The notes: generated by a model from the letters alone, not told the origin. Shown: positions 9,481-25,758, numbered from the stretch's first letter. The stretch is DNA of 64,000 nucleotides from an uncultured bacterium (GCA_963720265.1 CAVRET010000002.1:584704-648703), one strand, 5' to 3'. A program made the numbers and translations.

Positions 9481-10921
9481 CGGTGCGAACCTGCTGAAGC
9501 AGGCGGGCACGTACCGCCACCGGCCGGGAGGGTGCGATCATGCACCCACCCGGCCCGGCCGCAAATTACGTTGCAATTATTCATAAACGGAAAACGGGGC
9601 CTCACCAAAAGTGGCGAGGACCCCGAAAGAAAGGGGAGATTGGCCCGAGCATAGCCCAGGTTACTCGGGCCACCCCCGCGACGCGTTACCCGTGGTTCCT
9701 AGGCACCGTCTGGATCCTGTGCACCTCGACTCATCAGAGGCTGCACATGACGGTATTGCCCGTCGGGCGATGATGCGGCCGCGTTTTCAGATTTTGCGCA
9801 CCAGTAGCCAGTACATCAGCGACCGGATCCTAGGTACCTCTTGCACCCCCCGCGTTCGGAGGCTGCCCAAATCGGGCCCCTGGAGGCATCAGGGTTTTTG
9901 GGTGTAAGGGATATTTGGTCGGCGCAGGGCACGACTCCTTCTCCCTTGCGCGCAAGGCCATCTGCAGAATTATCCTGCACAATCAGCCTCACCCAGGCAG
10001 TAATTCCCAGGTCACGAACCCGGCGAACTCTACACTCGCGCGCCAGCTCGAGACTAAGATTATCCTCGAAAGGACCCCGGCAGTATAGGTAAAGCTACCA
10101 TCATTGTCAATAAAATTCCCAACGAAAAAGGGCCTCGCTAATGCGAGAGCCCTGTCTGTTTCTCGAGCGCCTAGGAAGGCTCTCAAGAAAGTGGTGGGGA
10201 GGAGCGAGCATATCTCGGTGCTCACTCCAACCCCCGAACGTGGCGGCTTCACCCTAAGGGTCGTGTATCTCTGCCGTTTCTTGGGCGTATCCCAGGGTTT
10301 CCCCGGGTGATCATCGCCTGGCAGTTTCTTGCCCTTTTGGGTCCCGGCATGCCGCCGTACCTAGTGTCACCGGTGCTCCGGTCCGAGTTCCTCTCTACCT
10401 GGAGGCTGAAGGTTGGAAGAGCCAGCCGTCACGGCCAAGCCAACTCTCCCCGTACACACCACGGCATCTTCGGCATACAAGCCCGAAGAGTCCACAGTGT
10501 TCAAGACCGGTACCCCGAGGGGCTGGCCCGAAGGCCTCCGGAGCCGTGTGTCTAGCACCTGGCAGGCGCTGGACGTTCTCGTCGTCGTGCCCATCGGGCG
10601 TGTATGACCCCGCGAGCCTGGGTCCCGATCTTGCCGCTCCACCCTGGGAGCGACCATTCCCCGGCCTCACCGATCGCTTCAACACTTGGTGCCAAATCTA
10701 TCGCACTTCGTGCAAACGCCTCGGAAATGCCGGTACTGCCGCGCGATATAAACCATTAACAGAACTTTGTCAACTCTTTTTACAAGCTTTCCCCCAACAA
10801 CACTTTTGCTTATTCATTATCCCAATCTCTAGCTCAAGCCAAAAACCATTTGGAGTTTTGCACTTGTCAGATCGCAAATCGAGTGGATACGATAAGATTA
10901 CAATTAAAGGTGAGGTGTCCT

Positions 10922-11506
10922 ATGAGTTCTCGTGCCATAGCAATAACCCGCGCTGTCTCCGTCATTGGCGGTACGACAGCGCTGATCGTCGCTGCAACCT
11001 TTGCAGCTGTGTCATCAAATCCGGTCACGATATCGGGCATTAGCCTGGCATCAAGTGACGTCCAGGCCCTAAATGTCTACGACTTCACTGGAAATAGCTT
11101 CACAGGAGACACCAGCAACCCTGGCAACACTGGTGCCATAAATGCCGACCTGACAACCTCGACACCGGGAACGCAGTACCCGTTCTATCTGCAAAACACA
11201 AGCGGCACAAGTCTTAACATATCGGCCACAGCCAATCCAACCGCTAGTGGAAGCTTAGACCCGAGCAACGTTGAGGTGACGTTCTGGGATGACTCAACCG
11301 GGGCACCCACTCAGCTGGGACAAGGTACGCTCGCAAGCATGCAGGCCGGGACTAGCGTAGCTCTCAATGCGTTGGCCGCTGGCGCCACAGGTAGTAGCAG
11401 TAGCAATGTGGCCGGCAACTACGATGTCAGCTTCAACCTTATCGCTCCCGATTCAAGCTTCGATACGCTGAGTACTGTGCAGTTGATCTTCACGGGTACG
11501 CCGTAA
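10922..11506 (+). CDS. TasA/camelysin-like secreted protein with a SipW-cognate-type signal peptide (paralog 1)
   Basis: The ORF starts at 10850, but a strong SD (AAAGGTGAGGTG) precedes the ATG at 10922. N-terminus MSSRAIAITRAVSVIGGTTALIVAATFAAVSS is followed by a Thr/Ser/Gly-rich beta-type domain. A SipW-type peptidase gene follows immediately. Confidence 0.5.
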   Translation: MSSRAIAITRAVSVIGGTTALIVAATFAAVSSNPVTISGISLASSDVQALNVYDFTGNSFTGDTSNPGNTGAINADLTTSTPGTQYPFYLQNTSGTSLNISATANPTASGSLDPSNVEVTFWDDSTGAPTQLGQGTLASMQAGTSVALNALAAGATGSSSSNVAGNYDVSFNLIAPDSSFDTLSTVQLIFTGTP

Positions 11507-11556
11507 GTTAGAATAAAGTCCAGGCTCTAGTTCATAGTTCGTAAAGGATTCCCGGC

Positions 11557-12672
11557 ATGAAATTACTTTGGCGCATCGCTAAATTTGCTCTGGTCACTAT
11601 CTACGCTCTGTGCGGGCTCGCACTGTTGCTGTTCTTGGTGCCGGCTACCGGCTTTGAAGCCAAAGAGATCGCCACCGGCAGCATGCGCCCGGCCATTCCA
11701 CCGGGATCCTTAGTCATTATTCACAAGACTCCGCTTAATCAACTCAAGGTCGGCAACGTCGTAACGTACACTAAGTCGGTCAATCCGCCGGTAACGATTA
11801 CGCACCGGATTGTGAAAACGGAAACGAAAAGCGGCGCGCCCTACTTCATCGTTAAAGGCGACGCCAACCCGGCGCCGGATCCGGCTGTGCCCGGCGGGCT
11901 GATTGTGGGCAAGGTCATCTTCCACGCGCCGTATATTGGCCGCGTGGCGATCGATATGCGCAACCCGGTGGTGATCGTGATCATTGTGATCATTCCCGGG
12001 CTGCTGATAATCGCGGATGAAATAATCCGGCTGCGCAAGGCCTTTGGCAGACCCGCGGCGCAAAAGAGCGAACCGACCGAACCGCCCGCACCACCAGCTA
12101 CAAAGGCGAAGGAGGCGGAAGTTGCGGTTAGCGCGGTGAAGAAACCGGTGGCTGTGCCCGCCCGCCGCCGGACAATGGACGGCATGAAGCCCAGACAGCT
12201 GGTGGTTACGCTGGCGGCTTTGTCCATGGTCGCGTTTGGCGTCAAGACAACCTACGCCGAAATTGCCTCAAATGCCGTGACCATTAGTGATATTAAGCTC
12301 TCGACTGGCGGCGGTTCCGGCAGCGGCAGTGGCGGCTCGCCCAGCCCGTCACCCAGCCCCACGACGCCGGCCTGCCCTAGCGGCGACATTTTGATCCAGG
12401 ACACCGGCGCCGGCTCGATCAACATTATTGATTGTAAGAACAAAAAGACCGGCAAGGTCGTGACGATCATTATTAACAACATCGATAACTCAAATAGCCA
12501 GTCGTCGAGCTCCGGCAATGTGAACAGCAGCGGCAACACGAACAGCGGCAATACCGGCAGCGGCAACTCGAGCAACTCCAACTCAACCACAACGACCGTT
12601 AACAATAACAAGCCTTCACCGTCGGCCAGCCCGTCGCCGACGCCGAGCGCGAGTCCGACGCCTCATTCATAA
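11557..12672 (+). CDS. sipW: signal peptidase I, SipW/archaeal type (S26B), with a C-terminal TM, PS linker and Cys-motif extension
   Basis: TGSMRPAIPPGSLVII (Ser box), VVTYTKS, ITHRIV (His box) and FIVKGDANPAPD. C-terminal extension SPSPSPSPTTPACPSGDILIQDTGAGSINIIDCKNKK plus an S/N/T-rich tail. Confidence 0.7.
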   Translation: MKLLWRIAKFALVTIYALCGLALLLFLVPATGFEAKEIATGSMRPAIPPGSLVIIHKTPLNQLKVGNVVTYTKSVNPPVTITHRIVKTETKSGAPYFIVKGDANPAPDPAVPGGLIVGKVIFHAPYIGRVAIDMRNPVVIVIIVIIPGLLIIADEIIRLRKAFGRPAAQKSEPTEPPAPPATKAKEAEVAVSAVKKPVAVPARRRTMDGMKPRQLVVTLAALSMVAFGVKTTYAEIASNAVTISDIKLSTGGGSGSGSGGSPSPSPSPTTPACPSGDILIQDTGAGSINIIDCKNKKTGKVVTIIINNIDNSNSQSSSSGNVNSSGNTNSGNTGSGNSSNSNSTTTTVNNNKPSPSASPSPTPSASPTPHS

Positions 12673-18895: not shown

Positions 18896-19471
18896 ATGAC
18901 TAGACGCTCATTTGCAATCGCCCGGGCCGCTGCCACGATCGGCGGTATGGGTGCGTTAATAATTGGAGCGACGATGGCCGCTACCAATGTCGGCACCGTG
19001 GCGCTAACGGCCAATTCGTTCGCGACCACGTCCACCGGCTTACAGATTTCCAACGATGGCAGCACATTTAGTGACACCGCCACCGGGTTTGACTTTGGCA
19101 GTCTTACGACGGGTGGTACATCAACTAAAGAAAACATGTGGCTTCAGGACACCTCAGGTGGCACGACACCACTCGGCATTACGCTCGCTGCGGCCAATGT
19201 CGGCGCGCTCACCGGCCTGAATCCCGCCGACGTCATGGTAAACGTCGAAGCCCACGGCGGCTCCACGGTTGATAGCTTCTCGCTCTCGTCTCTGGAATCA
19301 AGCACACCGGCGCTCAGCGCGGCCAACGAGCCGACCATTGAAAGCGACGGCACGCCGGTCCCGACCGAGTACGACGTTTGGCTGTCACTCAGCTCCGGCG
19401 CCGTTACCGGCACCACGGATCCTACGAGCAACACGTTTGACCTCAACTTCACCGGAACGAGTAGTTCGTAA
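18896..19471 (+). CDS. TasA/camelysin-like secreted protein with a SipW-cognate-type signal peptide (paralog 2)
   Basis: MTRRSFAIARAAATIGGMGALIIGATMAATNVGTVALTANSFATTSTG resembles the SipW-cognate signal class. Thr/Ser/Gly-rich body; followed 3 nt later by the SipW paralog. Confidence 0.5.
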   Translation: MTRRSFAIARAAATIGGMGALIIGATMAATNVGTVALTANSFATTSTGLQISNDGSTFSDTATGFDFGSLTTGGTSTKENMWLQDTSGGTTPLGITLAAANVGALTGLNPADVMVNVEAHGGSTVDSFSLSSLESSTPALSAANEPTIESDGTPVPTEYDVWLSLSSGAVTGTTDPTSNTFDLNFTGTSSS

Positions 19472-19473
19472 CC

Positions 19474-20496
19474 ATGAGGGCGCCTACGCAAGCTTTCCGC
19501 TGGATTGGCCTGGCCGCATACGCGGGCCTCGCCACGCTCATCATCCTCTTTCTCACGCCCATTGGTGGTTGGAAGGCCCTTGATGTGCTCACGGGAAGCA
19601 TGCGTCCGGCAATTCAGCCGGGCGCCCTTGTCATCATTCATCGTGTACCACTCAGTTCGGTTCATCCCGGCAATGTGGTCACCTATGTTAATCCGCACGA
19701 TACCAAAGAGCTGATCACCCACCGGGTGCAGTCAGTCAATAAGGTCAACGGCGTCACCATGGTGACGGTCAAGGGCGATGCCAATACCATCGCCGACCCG
19801 CCGTTTGCCGGGGGCCAAATTCAGGGCCGGGTGGCAACGATTGTGCCCTATGCCGGTCGTGTGCTCAATGTTATCCACAATCCCTATGGTCTGGCGCTGC
19901 TCGTCATTTTGCCGGCCCTATTTGTAATATGGATCGAAGCTAGGAGGTTGATGGGCGTGCTGGTTGAAGAATCCGACCCCGCGACGCCCGGCTCAGGCCG
20001 CTCCGGCGGTCTGCCGGTAGCAATCCGCTTTCGCCGCCCCCGGGAGATTAAGCAAACAGACGCAGGCCGACCACTCGACGGTATGCGCCGGCTCGCGGTG
20101 TTGCCGGTCGTGGCCATCGCCTTGGCCGTATTCGCGGTTGGAGTAACACTGGCCGCGCTCACCAGCACGGTCTCGCTCACCGGCAACAGCTTCCAAACCC
20201 AAGTCAGCGGCTCGCCCAGCCCCACGCCTTCTCCTAGTGGCAGTCCAACTCCATCGCCCTCGGGTTCGCCCACGCCGTCCGGCTCACCGTCGCCGACTGC
20301 TTCACCTTGCCCCACCAATGTCTCAATTACTGACACCGGTGCCGGCTCTACTAACATCGTGCGCTGCACCTCCAAGACCATCATTACCAACTCAAATTCA
20401 AACAACGTAAGCGTTACGAATTCAAATCATCAGTCCACCTCGGGTGGCGGTTCCAGTACCAACACTCAGACCACCAACATTAACGTCACCTATTAG
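19474..20496 (+). CDS. sipW: signal peptidase I, SipW type (paralog 2) with a TM, PS-linker and Cys-motif C-terminal extension
   Basis: TGSMRPAIQPGALVII, VVTYVNP, ITHRVQ, VTVKGDANTIADP; extension SPSPTPSPSGSPTPS...PCPTNVSITDTGAGSTNIVRCTSK. Confidence 0.7.
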   Translation: MRAPTQAFRWIGLAAYAGLATLIILFLTPIGGWKALDVLTGSMRPAIQPGALVIIHRVPLSSVHPGNVVTYVNPHDTKELITHRVQSVNKVNGVTMVTVKGDANTIADPPFAGGQIQGRVATIVPYAGRVLNVIHNPYGLALLVILPALFVIWIEARRLMGVLVEESDPATPGSGRSGGLPVAIRFRRPREIKQTDAGRPLDGMRRLAVLPVVAIALAVFAVGVTLAALTSTVSLTGNSFQTQVSGSPSPTPSPSGSPTPSPSGSPTPSGSPSPTASPCPTNVSITDTGAGSTNIVRCTSKTIITNSNSNNVSVTNSNHQSTSGGGSSTNTQTTNINVTY

Positions 20497-20543: not shown

Positions 20544-21371
20544 TTATTTCAATAAGCTCGAAGGGGATGGATTATAGCCGAAAAGTTCTAAGTTCAACTC
20601 AATTACCTCCGGAGTAACAAGACTAGCGTACAAGTTTGCGGCGTCTCTATTGCGGGCGAATAGATGCCATCTGTCAGTAACATCCATGTCTTGAGCACGA
20701 CCCTGTAGAGTGAGACCATCGAATGAACTACCCTCACCAATGCCAGAGACCTGGTTGATGCCTAGGTCTTCGTTTAAGAATCCCAGCTGAATTGCAACCC
20801 TATCTCTGTATTCCTTATTCTGAAACCATTTATCGTAGAGAATAGCAGCGAAATCACCTTCAGACATATTAACGATAGCATGCGCGTTTTCTACCCAAAC
20901 ATCACGCACATCCATCAGGCCAAGGCGATGAATGTTACGCGTCTCGCCTCTAGCCTCGACATTACGGCGTCTCTGTATTTGTGAAGCAATGAGGTTGGGG
21001 AAATTTCTTAATAACAACACGTCAATGCAATTGCTTCGTGTAAAAGTCGTATAATGCTCCTGTAGCCTTCGTTTGGCGAACATCAGGTCTTCATAGCTTA
21101 CGACTACATATCTGGGTCTGCCACGATCAATTGCTGACAGCATGTAGTCTACGTCAAGATACGGTTTTGAGGGATCGGCTGGATGACGCGGTTCATTTAC
21201 GGCATTAAAATGCGCAACCCCACCTTTCTGGCCACGGCTTAGTCCTTCACTAAGCCATCCTATCAAGGCATGATTGCCTGAACGTTTAAGTCCGAAAAAA
21301 TGAATGTACGTCACACTTTGTGACTGACCAGCAATGATAGCTTCTGTACGTAACGAATCTACTTCTGGCAT
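20544..21371 (-). CDS. hypothetical protein, possibly a sulfotransferase-like P-loop fold
   Basis: FFGLKRSGNHALIGWL resembles the 5'-PSB PKSGTT motif of sulfotransferases; lower GC than the surroundings. Confidence 0.3.
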   Translation of the reverse strand: MPEVDSLRTEAIIAGQSQSVTYIHFFGLKRSGNHALIGWLSEGLSRGQKGGVAHFNAVNEPRHPADPSKPYLDVDYMLSAIDRGRPRYVVVSYEDLMFAKRRLQEHYTTFTRSNCIDVLLLRNFPNLIASQIQRRRNVEARGETRNIHRLGLMDVRDVWVENAHAIVNMSEGDFAAILYDKWFQNKEYRDRVAIQLGFLNEDLGINQVSGIGEGSSFDGLTLQGRAQDMDVTDRWHLFARNRDAANLYASLVTPEVIELNLELFGYNPSPSSLLK

Positions 21372-21754
21372 CAGAAGTGCATTATGAGACAGCTACGCAC
21401 CTAACACAACTAACCGTTGGGACCACCGCGAATATAGGGGGCTAACGCCTATCAAACTGCACTATAGATCTAAAGTTTAACTACTTGATCTATAGTCTGG
21501 AGCTTGTAGCAAGAACATAGTTTCTAGCCACGCCGTACATGACCAGCTAGAGCTAGTCAATATAGCTAGAACCGGCCTAGCCGTGACCACAAGGTTCTAG
21601 ACCGTCATGCTCAGCCAAGAACCTACGTGCTCATTTGTCAACGCTCTTCTCGGAATTGGCTGCATGGCGTCAAGATGTACCTGTTTCGGTCTATGCACGA
21701 GTGAAGACTCAATCGTGCTACGCGCTTATGCTTAAATAGGGTACAGTTAAGCCA
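21372..21754. promoter_or_regulatory. long AT-rich divergent intergenic region
   Basis: 383 nt without a convincing ORF between the minus-strand gene start and the GH16 gene. Confidence 0.25.
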
Positions 21755-22894
21755 ATGCCAAAAACTCGAAATAAAAATCTGCCAGGACGCAATGGTCTCG
21801 GCCGTTATTTGCTGGGCGCTGTGGTGATATTAGCTTCCATTGTCATCGGTCTAGTGGTGGTACACGTGAAAGCGGCCGGGCTGGTTGGGGATCTCAATGA
21901 TGACGGTGTGGTCAATGTGCTTGACTTGTCGATTCTGCTAAGCGACTGGGGGCAAACAAACGCCGCCATTGAGCAAAACCTCGGACAAACCGGGCCCGTT
22001 GGCGTCATTGACCTGTCGATCTTGTTGTCTCACTGGGGGGATACTGCCTCGACACCCACACCTTCGCCCAGCCCGTCCCCAGTCGCGGCAGGTTGTGTCA
22101 GCGGCGGCGTGGTTGCACCGTGCATCGGCGGAGCTTCTACGGGCGCCAGCGGTTGGGGGACACCCATATTTGATGACGAGTTTAATGGGACTAGCCTGAA
22201 TACCAGCAACTGGAGTACAGGGTGGTTTGGTAGCGGAATCACCGGTCCAGTCAATAGCCTTGAAGATGATTGTTATAACCCGGACCTCGTAAGTATTTCC
22301 GGGGGTTATCTTGATGAGCAGATTATTCAACAAACCTGCACTGGGCGGCTTGGATCGGAACCATACTCTGCAGGCTACATAACTTCAATGACCTCGGGTG
22401 GAGGTAGTGACTTGTTCGGCTTCACTTACGGCTTCATAGAAGCCCGTATTTACTTCCCGGCAGCGTCCAACGGTGAAGTTGCCAACTGGCCGGCTTTCTG
22501 GCTACAAAGTCTGCATGACGGCAGCCAAACTGCGCCGAATACGGAAATAGATATCGAGGAAGGCCTGCATGGAGCGCTAAGGTGGCATGTGCTTGGGGCC
22601 GGAGGAACTACGGTTTGTACTGATGGCGACACTGGACCAGGATGGCACACTATCGGCCTTGATTGGCAGCCTGGTTCGGCGACTTTCTACTATGACGGTG
22701 TAGCAGTTGGGAGTACTTGCACAAGTAGTGCGCTTGATCCTGCTAATACTGGAGAAATGAGAATAGCTTTGGGCGAACAGACTAGCGCCACCATTGCAGG
22801 GCCGCAGACCGCACCACAAACAATGCAGACCGATTACGTTCGGGTTTGGCCTACAACTGGTACAGTTTATACATACGATGGCAGCTCAAATTAA
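21755..22894 (+). CDS. secreted glycoside hydrolase family 16 (laminarinase/beta-glucanase-like) with an N-terminal dockerin-like repeat pair
   Basis: N-terminal TM/signal, then DLNDDGVVNVLDLSILLSDWGQT and GPVGVIDLSILLSHWGDT (dockerin type I-like). PSPSPSP linker; GH16 catalytic motif EIDIEE, and FWLQS. Confidence 0.6.
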   Translation: MPKTRNKNLPGRNGLGRYLLGAVVILASIVIGLVVVHVKAAGLVGDLNDDGVVNVLDLSILLSDWGQTNAAIEQNLGQTGPVGVIDLSILLSHWGDTASTPTPSPSPSPVAAGCVSGGVVAPCIGGASTGASGWGTPIFDDEFNGTSLNTSNWSTGWFGSGITGPVNSLEDDCYNPDLVSISGGYLDEQIIQQTCTGRLGSEPYSAGYITSMTSGGGSDLFGFTYGFIEARIYFPAASNGEVANWPAFWLQSLHDGSQTAPNTEIDIEEGLHGALRWHVLGAGGTTVCTDGDTGPGWHTIGLDWQPGSATFYYDGVAVGSTCTSSALDPANTGEMRIALGEQTSATIAGPQTAPQTMQTDYVRVWPTTGTVYTYDGSSN

Positions 22895-23007
22895 ATTCAT
22901 ACATAACTAATTAACGGCCACACCCCATTATCGCAAGTATACGATCCTGAGTCGGGCAGGCATCGTGTGTTTTTGCCAAAGCCACGCGCACAGGCCATAA
23001 TGAGCTT

Positions 23008-23847
23008 GTGTTTATCGCAGGCATTCTGTTCAGCTCCACACTATTTGAAGAAATCTCCGAAACCATTGGCAAGAAATCGGTTCGCAAGCGCCGCGAAACC
23101 GTCTATAATTTGGCCTTCTTGAGCCTATTTTGGACACTGACGCTGCTAATTGTGGCAGGCCTCATTGGCGTCAAGTTCGTTGTACAGGAAGCCTCATGGC
23201 CGTTTCTGATCGTGCGCATGATAATCGGAATCGCGCTCAATTTTGTGGCCGCCCAAGCCGTGGTCCAGGCCGATCGCAGCACACTCGGGTTCATCCGTCT
23301 GCTCACAATTCCGCTCGTGCTCGCAACCGACATCATGCTCGGCTACCACCTCACGACGCTCCAAATCGTAGCCGTCTGTGTTATGTTTGTCGGCCTTGTC
23401 GCTGCCTTTCATCATAACCCCACCGGCAAACGCGGTGCCGGCTGGGCCTTGCTGGTGGCAATTCTTGCAGCCGCCGACGCCACACTCTACAAGCACGATA
23501 TTACTCACTACAATTCCGTGGTTGGAGAGCAAGTTGTGGTCTATAGCGCCGTTGTCTTGTTCTTCTATGTCTGCTCGGTCCGGCAGGGCAGCCGGCCGCT
23601 CCATCTGTTGGCACGACCAATTACGGGTATTCAGTCGTTTACCGACGGATGCGGCCTGGCGATTGAAAGCTTCGCCTTCAGCTTCGCCCCGGCGTCGGTG
23701 GTTGTAGCTGCCAAGCGTACCTTCGCCCTCATGTGGTCAATCGTGTTTGGGCATCGCTACTTTCACGAGCACAAATTACATCGCAAACTATTCGCCGGCG
23801 CCGTACTGGCCGTCGGCCTCATTCTGCTCGTCAGCCCCGGCATCTGA
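23008..23847 (+). CDS. EamA/DMT-like membrane protein
   Basis: 279 aa, about 8-10 TM helices; start is a GTG and the N-terminus may be longer. Confidence 0.4.
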   Translation: MFIAGILFSSTLFEEISETIGKKSVRKRRETVYNLAFLSLFWTLTLLIVAGLIGVKFVVQEASWPFLIVRMIIGIALNFVAAQAVVQADRSTLGFIRLLTIPLVLATDIMLGYHLTTLQIVAVCVMFVGLVAAFHHNPTGKRGAGWALLVAILAAADATLYKHDITHYNSVVGEQVVVYSAVVLFFYVCSVRQGSRPLHLLARPITGIQSFTDGCGLAIESFAFSFAPASVVVAAKRTFALMWSIVFGHRYFHEHKLHRKLFAGAVLAVGLILLVSPGI

Positions 23848-23892: not shown

Positions 23893-24315
23893 TTGGTCAA
23901 ACCAGCTCGTCATGAATCATATACTTTGCTCGTCGCAGTCAGCGCCGGGCTCGTGCTGGTATTAATCGCCGACTGGTCATGGAGCCAGGGTCACAGCCTC
24001 AGCGCCAAGCCGGCCGACACCACGGTCACGGTTTCAACGTCACCAAGCCCGTCACCGTCCAGCTCTCCCATGTCTACGCCCACGCCGGCCTCATCGCCGA
24101 CCCCTCAGAGCTCATCGCAAAGCTCCACCACCACGAGCTCGTCCGGCAACAGCTCAAACAACATCACCGTTACCAACACCAACGACCAGACCGCAACCTC
24201 AGGTGCGGCCAACAATCATAATTCCAGCTCGACTAGCGTCACTATCAACGGTAATAACACTACTACCACAACCACTGACAACAACGGCCACGTTACCACC
24301 ACGGTCACGCATTAG
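23893..24315 (+). CDS. membrane-anchored S/T/N-rich low-complexity protein
   Basis: One N-terminal TM, SPSPSPSSSP linker, and an NNITVTNTN...TSVTINGNNTTTTTT tail like the SipW C-terminal tails. Confidence 0.4.
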   Translation: MVKPARHESYTLLVAVSAGLVLVLIADWSWSQGHSLSAKPADTTVTVSTSPSPSPSSSPMSTPTPASSPTPQSSSQSSTTTSSSGNSSNNITVTNTNDQTATSGAANNHNSSSTSVTINGNNTTTTTTDNNGHVTTTVTH

Positions 24316-24336: not shown

Positions 24337-25758
24337 ATGCTTGCGGCTTCGTTTAAACGCACCAAAATCGTTGCCACCATCGGCCCGTCTTCGAGCTCAC
24401 CTCAAGTGCTCGAGCAGTTGTTGCTCGCAGGCGTAAATATGTTCCGGCTTAACTTCTCGCACGGCACCCAGGCTGAGCACGGCGAGGTTTTTCACCTCGT
24501 GCGCAAACTCTCAGCTCACCACAACCGCCCAGCCGCCTTGTTGGCCGATCTCCAAGGGCCCAAGATCCAGATCGGCATGCTGCCGGCCGACGGTTTGGCG
24601 TTCGTGCGCGGACACCTTGTACGTTTTGCCTACAATGCCGATTACGAAACCTCAGGCATCGTGCCGGTCCGCCACAACATTGCCAAATACTTAAAAAAAG
24701 GCGAGCGCATCTTCCTGCACGACGGCCAGATCGAAGTCGAGGTTGAAAAAATCGAGCGGGAACTCATCACTACCAAAGTGCTCGTGCCCGGCATTTTGCT
24801 GTCTAATCAGGGCATTAATCTCCCCGACACCGATCTTGGCGGCGAAATTACCACAGAAAAAGACCTGTCCGACCTCAAATTCGCGGTTGGGCTGGGCGCC
24901 GATTACGTCGGCTACTCATTTGTACAAACCGCTAGCGACATCGAACATCTGCGCGTCAAACTGAAAAAGCTTGGAGCGCCGGACATGCGAATCATCGCCA
25001 AAATCAAAACCGCCGCCGCCGTGGAGAACCTTGAAGCAGTCGTGGCTGCTACCGACGCCATTATGGTGGCCCGCGGCGATCTCGCCATCGAAACTAAACC
25101 GGAATCAGTACCCGCTGCCCAACGCCGGATGATCGAGCTCGGTAAGCTCTACCGTAAGCCGGTTATCGTGGCCACGCAAATGCTCGAATCCATGATCTCA
25201 GCGCCGGCCCCAACCCGCGCCGAGGTCTCTGATGTCGCCACAGCTGTACTCGAGGGCGCCGACGCCGTTATGCTCTCGGCTGAAAGCGCCGTCGGCCTGT
25301 TCCCGGTCGATACTGTCAAAATGATGAAGCGCATCATCCTCTACACCGAGCGCGAAGAACTAGCCAAACTCCCGACCCCGCCACTGCCCGCATCGTCCCA
25401 CGGCAACCAAACCAACGCCATTTCAGCTGCCGCCGTCGAGCTAGCGCGCCAGCTCCCGGCCAAAGTTATCATTGCCGAAACCAGCTCGGGCCAAACCGCC
25501 AGAAACGTCTCCGCCCTCCGTCCCGGCGTGCCCATCATCATGGTGACCGACCACGAGCGGGTGTATCATCAAATGGCCATTGTGTGGGGCGGCAAGTCGT
25601 TTCTAGTTAACAACATGGACGGCGCCACCGAGCACGTCATTCGTGAGTTAAAGGCCGCCGGCAATGTCGCCACCGGCGATGCTTTGGTAGTAGCTTCGGG
25701 CAACCAGCCCGGCCTCATCGGCGGCACCGACCGTGTACAAATTAAGATCGTGGAGTAG
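24337..25758 (+). CDS. pyk: pyruvate kinase
   Basis: KIVATIGPSS...NMFRLNFSHG, MVARGDLAIE, full 473 aa. Confidence 0.85.
   Translation: MLAASFKRTKIVATIGPSSSSPQVLEQLLLAGVNMFRLNFSHGTQAEHGEVFHLVRKLSAHHNRPAALLADLQGPKIQIGMLPADGLAFVRGHLVRFAYNADYETSGIVPVRHNIAKYLKKGERIFLHDGQIEVEVEKIERELITTKVLVPGILLSNQGINLPDTDLGGEITTEKDLSDLKFAVGLGADYVGYSFVQTASDIEHLRVKLKKLGAPDMRIIAKIKTAAAVENLEAVVAATDAIMVARGDLAIETKPESVPAAQRRMIELGKLYRKPVIVATQMLESMISAPAPTRAEVSDVATAVLEGADAVMLSAESAVGLFPVDTVKMMKRIILYTEREELAKLPTPPLPASSHGNQTNAISAAAVELARQLPAKVIIAETSSGQTARNVSALRPGVPIIMVTDHERVYHQMAIVWGGKSFLVNNMDGATEHVIRELKAAGNVATGDALVVASGNQPGLIGGTDRVQIKIVE

Follow-up and report, generated by a model that had tools for sequence, protein, structure and literature searches.

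SipW-like signal peptidases with a candidate internal signal peptide and pilin-strand copy in a Saccharibacteria genome

Introduction

In Bacillus subtilis, SipW cleavage exposes the segment that serves as the donor strand of the fibre subunit TasA. The N-terminus of the accessory protein TapA, exposed in the same way, resembles this strand and takes the first-strand position in the TasA groove in a published model (PMC9674648). For archaeal pili, the proposed giver of the first strand is AbpB, which would also carry adhesin domains distally (PMC9245690). A further set of loci, abpX/tafi, includes fusions of signal peptidase I (SPase I), namely a ten-helix SPase I and a DUF5305-SPase, among which no Patescibacteria are mentioned (bioRxiv 10.64898/2026.01.04.697558). 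Even for Bacillus and archaea, it is not settled how TasA-like donor-strand-exchange fibres start and are anchored, and TapA and AbpB are only modelled as givers of the first strand. Here, we analyse a 64,000-nucleotide stretch of a Saccharibacteria genome (CAVRET010000002.1:584704-648703 of assembly GCA_963720265.1; hereafter the window) that encodes two archaeal-type signal peptidases, SipW1 and SipW2, each with a fused C-terminal extension and each adjoining a pilin-like gene. A sequence-only reading of the window had singled out a Cys-bracketed motif in both extensions as an undescribed feature, and our searches of the literature on SipW, on Saccharibacteria/Patescibacteria and on archaeal-type peptidases with donor strands likewise found no description of such a fusion.

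The layout recalls that of tapA-sipW-tasA in that a dedicated, archaeal-type signal peptidase adjoins a secreted beta-sandwich fibre subunit, and it recalls TapA in that the N-terminus of the accessory part appears to copy the donor strand of the subunit and is followed by a separate domain. The likeness to TapA is one of function only. In the window, the accessory part belongs to the same polypeptide as the peptidase, joined to it by an additional helix, rather than being a free-standing secreted protein, and searches of the window tails against Pfam and NCBIfam gave no match to the central beta-sandwich of TapA, which places them outside the TapA family. Further differences from tapA-sipW-tasA are that the window pilin has no TasA/PF12389 match, that the peptidase is no SipW equivalog and that the distal domain is a Cys-bracketed repeat rich in Asn, Ser and Thr (N/S/T). 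The window pilin model matches AbpA of Pyrobaculum calidifontis (7ueg_A, probability 0.91) and the Sulfolobus 0406 thread (7pnb_A), with weak Foldseek E-values (0.03-0.13); unlike here, the ABP locus showed no dedicated peptidase, and AbpB is a separate 410-aa protein (PMC9245690). The SPase I enzymes of abpX/tafi loci are similarly dedicated to TasA-like fibres and carry extra fused membrane or extracellular modules, but those fusions involve accessory-subunit or polytopic domains and contain no second signal peptide with a donor-strand copy. Finally, the type 1 pilus subunits FimA, FimG and FimF share the logic of an N-terminal donor-strand extension and of non-polymerising tip or adaptor subunits, whereas the system described here has no chaperone or usher, belongs to a monoderm-type cell of the candidate phyla radiation, uses Sec and SipW for secretion and shows a sequence identity of 10-16%.

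Results

The tails of the peptidases resemble the N-termini of their partner pilins

The features of the pilin, SipW and third genes given with window coordinates are on the plus strand. Pilin-like ("TasA-like") gene 1 (10922-11506), identified by the family alignment A2, is the partner of SipW1 (11557-12672, 371 aa; TIGR02228 and alignment A1), while pilin-like gene 2 (18896-19471), identified by its AlphaFold2 (AF2) beta-sandwich and Foldseek, is the partner of SipW2 (19474-20496, 340 aa; TIGR02228 and AF2). After the peptidase core, the sequence-only reading had described one transmembrane (TM) helix and a linker. A helix and the linker are indeed present, but there are two helices, TM2 and TM3, separated by a basic loop. 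The most informative part of the extension lies upstream of the Cys-bracketed motif and was missed by that reading: TM3 is a predicted internal SipW-type signal peptide, and it is followed by an apparent 16-18-residue copy of the N-terminal strand of the upstream pilin.

In SipW1, the cytoplasmic TM2-TM3 loop (residues 159-213; 12031-12195), assigned from its charge count, ends in RRRTMDGMKPR and leads into TM3 (Q214-A234; 12196-12258), for which column-wise alignment with pilin signal peptides gives a putative cleavage site T-Y-A↓E. The donor-strand-like segment that follows, EIASNAVTISDIKLST (12259-12306), has a BLOSUM62 score of 50 against pilin 1, and a Gly/Ser and Pro/Ser linker can be read from the sequence thereafter (12307-12369). 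In SipW2, the putative internal signal peptide (R205-A227; 20086-20154) has a candidate cleavage site T-L-A↓A, placed by the conservation of A227 and a weak TIGR04088 match, and is followed by the donor-strand-like segment ALTSTVSLTGNSFQTQ (20155-20202), which was located by a pilin-strand hidden Markov model (HMM).

This arrangement is found in every tailed homologue: a signal-peptide-like segment follows the TM2-TM3 loop, and what resembles the start of a mature pilin comes after it. In one relative (P0033), the model of the SipW-dependent signal peptide, TIGR04088, matches inside the peptidase gene itself (residues 221-244; 22.6 bits versus a cut-off of 19). We aligned 22 tails (TM3 plus 50 residues) with the N-termini of the pilin-like genes located 12-65 bp upstream. 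Threonine occupies position -3 in 22/22 pilins and 12/22 tails, and alanine occupies position -1 in 21/22 pilins and 19/22 tails. The columns after the cleavage site read L, S, A, L (18/22 in both sets), N (16 pilins, 14 tails) and a hydrophobic residue, and the column profiles of tails and pilins agree across more than 20 positions. After about 18 residues, the two sets part, with the pilins entering their beta-sandwich and the tails a Pro/Ser or Pro/Thr (PS/PT) linker. Outside the core, alignment A1 has only two nearly invariant positions, and the -1 alanine of SipW2, A227, is one of them. While the signal peptide and strand are constant among tails, the distal domain varies (N/S/T module, DCKNGGW...C mini-domain, lamin-tail domain LTD or LamG), as expected of a primer or tip adaptor.

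The strand also co-varies with the cognate pilin. Over the 18 post-cleavage columns of the 22 cassettes, tails have an identity of 0.486 to their own pilin versus 0.293 to the pilins of other cassettes (p <= 5e-5 from 20,000 pairing permutations), and the own pilin ranks first for 10 tails and within the top two for 16. The n/h region preceding the strand displays no own-pilin effect (0.141 versus 0.151, p = 0.80) and thus controls for composition and kinship. Within the window, tail 1 is closer to pilin 1 (0.43) than to pilin 2 (0.17), and tail 2 is closer to pilin 2 (0.43) than to pilin 1 (0.26). When a pilin-strand HMM built from 20 other genomes was searched against 12,238 six-frame open reading frames (ORFs), SipW2 was the best match (E 1.2e-4) and pilin 1 the second, with the rest at E >= 0.4. 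The strand of pilin 1, TFAAVSSNPVTISGISLASS, and that of the SipW1 tail are reciprocal best ungapped matches genome-wide (50 versus 36-40 for the next). At the nucleotide level, tail and pilin strands are only 53% identical, and the codons used for identical residues mostly differ. This excludes a recent gene-conversion event between the two, and the likeness is kept at the protein level.

Peptidase core and membrane topology

Both enzymes match TIGR02228, the archaeal/ER-type signal peptidase I of MEROPS type S26B, well above its curated cut-off of 51.85 bits (SipW1 87.6, over core residues 13-157; SipW2 87.8). They share 35% identity across their full length, tail included (BLASTP E 2e-45). 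S42, H83, D102 and D108 (SipW2 numbering) are invariant across the 25 sequences of alignment A1, and the Ser, His and Asp residues presumably have the catalytic role of their counterparts in B. subtilis SipW. Against NF046067, the equivalog model of Bacillus SipW, the two enzymes score 61.4 and 64.7 bits versus a cut-off of 190, and by these scores the window peptidases are classed as SipW-like rather than as SipW orthologues. As this model aligns to residues 31-164 only and to nothing of the extension, an analogy to the signalling tail of B. subtilis SipW, which had been drawn earlier, finds no support.

Hydropathy indicates three helices, with TM2 at residues 137-158/160 and TM3 at 205/214-226/236, and the AF2 model of SipW2 places helices at 3-31, 137-166 and 205-222, with a core predicted local distance difference test (pLDDT) score of about 90. 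Three hydrophobic helices and a length of 280-480 aa are likewise seen in most of 46 homologues. Since the catalytic domain, which lies between TM1 and TM2, has to be external, three helices put the K/R-rich TM2-TM3 loop (13 K+R in 55 residues in SipW1, 7 in 44 in SipW2) inside and the tail after TM3 outside. By topology parity, the tail of both peptidases is thus extracytoplasmic, as the sequence-only reading had supposed. Just before TM3, on the cytoplasmic side, lies an R-x-[LMI]-D-[GS]-hydrophobic motif (12160-12195 and 20065-20100) that is kept in homologues L014-L028; the conservation of R-x-[LMI]-D-G-hydrophobic is at the protein level and involves neither a start codon nor a ribosome-binding site.

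The Cys-bracketed motif is kept among relatives

The Cys-bracketed motif translates exactly from the sequence in both peptidases, as ACPSGDILIQDTGAGSINIIDCKNKK in SipW1 (12370-12447) and PCPTNVSITDTGAGSTNIVRCTSK in SipW2 (20305-20376); the coordinates given previously, 12369-12446 and 20307-20378, were off by 1 and 2 nt, respectively. Both instances have the form C-x(7-8)-DTGAGSxNI-x2-C followed by an N/S/T stretch. In SipW1, the module (DTGAGSIN and an N/S/T beta region; 12370-12609) is delimited by translation, profile and alignment A4, and its cysteines are C273 (12373-12375) and C293 (12433-12435). The module of SipW2 (DTGAGSTN and a NVSVTNSNHQSTSGG hairpin; 20302-20493), delimited by translation and profile A4, contains C279 (20308-20310) and C298 (20365-20367).

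To place the motif among relatives, we surveyed 30 SipW-like ORFs from 401 Saccharimonadia genomes, 26 of which are tailed. The majority (16/30) have the bracket C-x(2-14)-[TSNV]G-x-x-S-x(3-14)-C with variable spacing of the Cys pair, while 3/30 have only the N/S/T core with a Cys at each module end, 7/30 have other tails and 4/30 are short and lack a tail. A separate search for related loci with the peptidase alignment gave 9. The motif is thus retained in SipW homologues of related genomes and co-occurs there with pilin-like genes, both of which the sequence-only reading had proposed as checks. G289 of SipW2 is nearly invariant in alignment A1. Cysteines flank 13/19 motif matches in SipW homologues but only 3/322 TGxxS motifs in 148 free-standing repeat-protein representatives, and by this count the Cys bracket appears specific to peptidase cassettes. 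Genes for VKOR (138 bits) and a DsbA-like thioredoxin (83 bits) are present in the genome, which makes a putative extracytoplasmic disulfide across the bracket, as in the loop described earlier, plausible.

An alternative Cys-bracketed mini-domain, DCKNGGW..(F/Y)KNPDGSP.FKNQGQC, is found in place of or before the N/S/T module in other SipW tails (P0009, P0012, P0016, P0017, P0019-P0021, P0023, P0026 and L020:1450-2517, minus strand) and also as a free-standing secreted protein (region L020:3265-3687, minus strand). In a related metagenome-assembled genome (L045:328-3957; DASXHH010000004.1), two pilin-SipW cassettes lie in tandem just before the pyruvate kinase gene (pyk). Their tails belong to different types, DCKNGGW in one and Cys-bracket in the other, which parallels the pair of cassettes in the window.

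The N/S/T stretch is a copy of a repeat domain

The stretch after the motif had been taken for a low-complexity tail. Our profile A4, built from nine sequences that start at the first Cys and stop where the N/S/T region ends, instead retrieves 837 of 1.84 billion cluster representatives at E <= 1e-3, 248 at E <= 1e-10 and 3 at E <= 1e-30, with a lowest E of 1e-32; the window tails themselves score 88.2 (SipW1) and 64.9 bits (SipW2). The top matches are secreted and annotated as "hypothetical"; their lengths of about 195, 285 and 340-390 aa correspond to 2, 3 and 4 tandem copies, respectively, and 2-4 tandem copies are seen in hundreds of matching proteins. Matches start at profile position 6-8, right after the first Cys, and the repeat consensus is TG(P/A)xSxN-x-I ... 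N-x-V-x-V-x-N-x-N-x-Q-x-A-x-SG ... NT-x-GG-x-A-x-SG-x-A-x-N-x-N-x-T. Judged by these profile matches, the N/S/T stretch is one copy of a conserved, uncharacterised repeat domain of about 72 aa rather than plain low complexity. Searches of Pfam, NCBIfam, PHROGs and the PDB with the module gave no significant match, and no match to curli repeats was seen either. With the tail alone as query, low complexity overwhelmed a word-based homologue search, which yielded 2 matches. Across 401 Patescibacteria genomes sampled from the whole phylum, A4 matches at E <= 1e-8 occur only in four Saccharimonadia genomes. The AlphaFold model of the SipW2 tail has a pLDDT of 32-53, with a long hairpin predicted at 309-339, and we therefore claim no fold for the module. 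The domain is newly delimited here, with hundreds of members, uncharacterised and without a structure.

Elsewhere in the same genome, on contig C2 near 119.6 kb and at 69-72 kb, secreted proteins contain two, three and several tandem Cys-free copies of this repeat of about 72 aa (L009:895-1755, plus strand; L011:1979-2629 and L011:1-1863, both minus strand) and match no Pfam or NCBIfam family. Other Saccharimonadia encode small PT-rich proteins whose C-terminal end consists of a sortase-like sorting signal (MPTTG, TPDTG, TPETG or LSNTG), then a helix and a basic tail (L052:2021-2419, minus strand; L053:2984-3337; L056:2989-3543 and L058:3007-3402, both minus strand).

The third gene of cassette 2

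In the loci of eight relatives (L014, L016, L017, L020, L024-L026 and L031; L043, L044 and L046 derive from the same genomes as three of these), a gene for a 130-160-aa protein lies 13-86 bp downstream of SipW. In these proteins, an anchor at the N-terminus and a PT linker precede the module found in the peptidase tails, which often contains CP...TGxxS...C. The 140-aa protein of the window (23893-24315), whose likeness to the tails had been remarked on before, aligns with them: it has an N-terminal membrane anchor, a PS linker and a module core that lacks the Cys-loop/TGxxS part and retains N-I-T-V-T-N-T-N-D-Q-T-A-T-S-G. From this alignment, it is best described as a predicted membrane-anchored paralogue of the module. 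In L031, L043 and L044, SipW, the small protein and pyk are contiguous, while in the window pyk follows the 140-aa gene at 24337 and SipW2 is separated from both by a 3.3-kb block of lower GC content. Given the shared module and the pyk neighbour, 23893-24315 is therefore the third gene of cassette 2. In 4/10 third-gene proteins (L014:2558-3025; L016:919-1389 and L017:528-1013, both minus strand; L031:2347-2823), though not in the window copy, the anchor is followed by an "L-x-L-x-I-x-D-G"-like segment that resembles the second strand of the pilins (GLQISNGG / LRIYDFxG). On this resemblance, the two accessory proteins could imitate successive strands of the pilin.

Partner pilins and surroundings of the cassettes

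The genome has a single LepB-type peptidase alongside two SipW-like enzymes; pilin-like genes of the A2 family number exactly two, and each adjoins one SipW. The AF2 model of pilin 2 is a beta-sandwich (pLDDT 75.6; predicted template modelling score 0.70) in which residues 1-36 are disordered, with pLDDT below 50. Donor-strand pilins make up most of its top 20 Foldseek matches (FimA, FimG/F, CS20, AbpA 7ueg and 0406 thread 7pnb), the best being FimA 6r74 (E 4.4e-5), with AbpA 7ueg_A at a probability of 0.91. From the model, the partner genes are predicted to have a donor-strand pilin fold, and "TasA-like" should be read as denoting a SipW-associated donor-strand pilin fold. Two pilin types can be told apart by the sequence after the strand: type 1 has L(R/N)(I/V)YDFxG (window pilin 1, L019 and L031), while type 2 has GLQISNGG (window pilin 2, L014 and L016).

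Both pilin genes are preceded by the Shine-Dalgarno sequence AGGTGAGG, and promoter and terminator scans of the locus returned only background levels. Cassette 1 (10850-12672) has no third gene and lies adjacent to a mobile-element remnant. The block inserted between SipW2 and its third gene (20544-23847), recognised by its GC content (0.50-0.54 versus about 0.58 elsewhere), contains three unrelated genes: a 275-aa ORF on the minus strand, a GH16 protein with a dockerin-like repeat and a membrane protein with several predicted helices.

Discussion

A candidate primer or anchor fused to its processing enzyme

The extension is probably a TapA-like primer or anchor for a donor-strand fibre, fused to the peptidase, in a Saccharibacteria genome. 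This reading draws on the architecture, conservation, topology parity, strand co-variation and domain family described above; docking in the groove, cleavage of the tail, formation of the disulfide and the part played by the third gene are what we infer. The predicted donor-strand pilin fold of the partner, the pairing of each pilin with one SipW, the disulfide machinery and the precedents of TapA and AbpB also speak for it. Each enzyme would be a three-helix membrane protein with its peptidase domain outside between TM1 and TM2 and its basic loop in the cytoplasm, and TM3 would re-export a substrate-like module composed, in order, of a SipW-type signal peptide (TM3 with its T-x-A end), a donor-strand copy, a Pro/Ser/Thr linker and one Cys-bracketed copy of the widespread N/S/T-rich beta repeat. 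As has been suggested for TapA and TasA, the tail strand could then insert into the acceptor groove of its own pilin, so that a donor-strand-exchange fibre would be primed or anchored where its subunits are matured, on the peptidase itself. Cleavage at T-x-A by this enzyme may free the module as a TapA-like primer; alternatively, the module may stay tethered via TM3. In the exposed domain, the two cysteines would probably be disulfide-bonded, stapling the first hairpin with its TGxGSxN turn, and the third gene would give a membrane-anchored paralogue of the module that is possibly a docking partner.

A more specific and speculative version, to which we give a low probability, is that the peptidase-tethered strand serves as an assembly platform and not as a passive primer. 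Here, the strand would stay on TM3, occupy the open groove of the fibre's proximal subunit much as the chaperone's strand does in chaperone-usher pili, and be displaced by newly cleaved pilin N-termini arising a few nanometres away, coupling cleavage to polymerisation without an outer membrane, while the stapled module would pair with the third-gene paralogue and fix the complex in the envelope.

Several observations weigh against a primer or anchor. TIGR04088 matches SipW2 at only 11.2 bits (E 0.31, residues 213-242; cut-off 19) and does not match SipW1; the window's own pilins also fall below this cut-off, and hence the model is insensitive in this lineage. The ungapped match between tail and pilin of cassette 2 is marginal (35 versus 34, and 37 versus 38 genome-wide). 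The sampled genomes are related by kinship and are not independent samples, and the co-variation could instead reflect recognition of P' residues by the same peptidase. A free-standing gene with signal peptide, strand and module, which could reveal the origin of the fusion, was sought among the tail-only matches and none was found, all but one of these matches being PT-rich proteins with sortase-like C-terminal signals and the exception a protein of the third-gene type. On the side of the pilins, 1/25 family members matches TasA/camelysin PF12389 (E 0.35), no PDB chain is matched by sequence, and in the Foldseek comparison TM-scores are 0.3-0.48 with TasA itself outside the top 50. Docking of the strand in the groove is putative, and the AlphaFold tail has the low pLDDT given above.

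Alternative explanations

If TM3 were a plain third anchor, the linker and module could form an uncleaved surface stalk or adhesin, and the likeness to pilins would be a relic of the fusion's origin or a sign of shared targeting. This would suit the distal domains of relatives, which are of adhesin or carbohydrate-binding type (LTD, LamG), as well as the PS/PT linkers, which are typical of surface stalks, and cleavage of the module is only putative. A relic, however, would not be expected to show co-variation with the cognate pilin that is confined to the post-cleavage strand and absent from the hydrophobic region, nor to persist at the protein level with diverged codons, and the alanine at -1 would not be among the only two nearly invariant positions outside the core; we consider a stalk or adhesin rather unlikely. 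The same co-variation would be expected if one shared enzyme recognised both sequences, as in a pseudo-substrate regulator in which the tethered signal peptide and P' strand fill the peptidase's own cleft and gate its activity until a pilin comes. The tail has the same -3/-1 and P' pattern as a true substrate, and the tether puts it beside the active site. Such a regulator nevertheless leaves the conserved linker, the folded and varied distal domains and the paralogous third gene unexplained, and no type I signal peptidase is known to read 18 P' residues, all of which makes regulation of this kind quite improbable.

A signalling tail of the kind seen in B. subtilis SipW is very unlikely for the extension, and so is compositional low complexity in which a Cys pair arose by chance. 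The composition is indeed rich in Asn, Ser and Thr (17%, 19-23% and 11-22%, respectively), and a second, peptidase-independent role has been reported for B. subtilis SipW (Terra et al. 2012, as cited in PMC4292775), but the profile E-values and the 2-4 tandem copies in hundreds of proteins do not fit low complexity, the Bacillus SipW model does not reach the extension, and the Cys pair recurs, with variable spacing, in 16/30 relatives. Equally remote is an artefact in which two genes were wrongly joined, or an internal start that would yield a separate secreted tail. A Met does stand just before TM3 in both window genes (MKPRQ and MRRLAV). The frame is continuous, however, in 26 tailed ORFs from independent assemblies, the equivalent codon in relatives is GTC, ATT, CTC, CTG or ATA, and no Shine-Dalgarno sequence precedes the Met, unlike the pilin genes; on the last two counts, internal initiation is ruled out.

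Implications

With a candidate primer welded to the processing peptidase, the idea that a dedicated first strand starts or anchors a TasA-like fibre becomes directly testable. The locus points to a surface-fibre system in Saccharibacteria, which are epibiotic bacteria and for whose lifestyle attachment structures matter.

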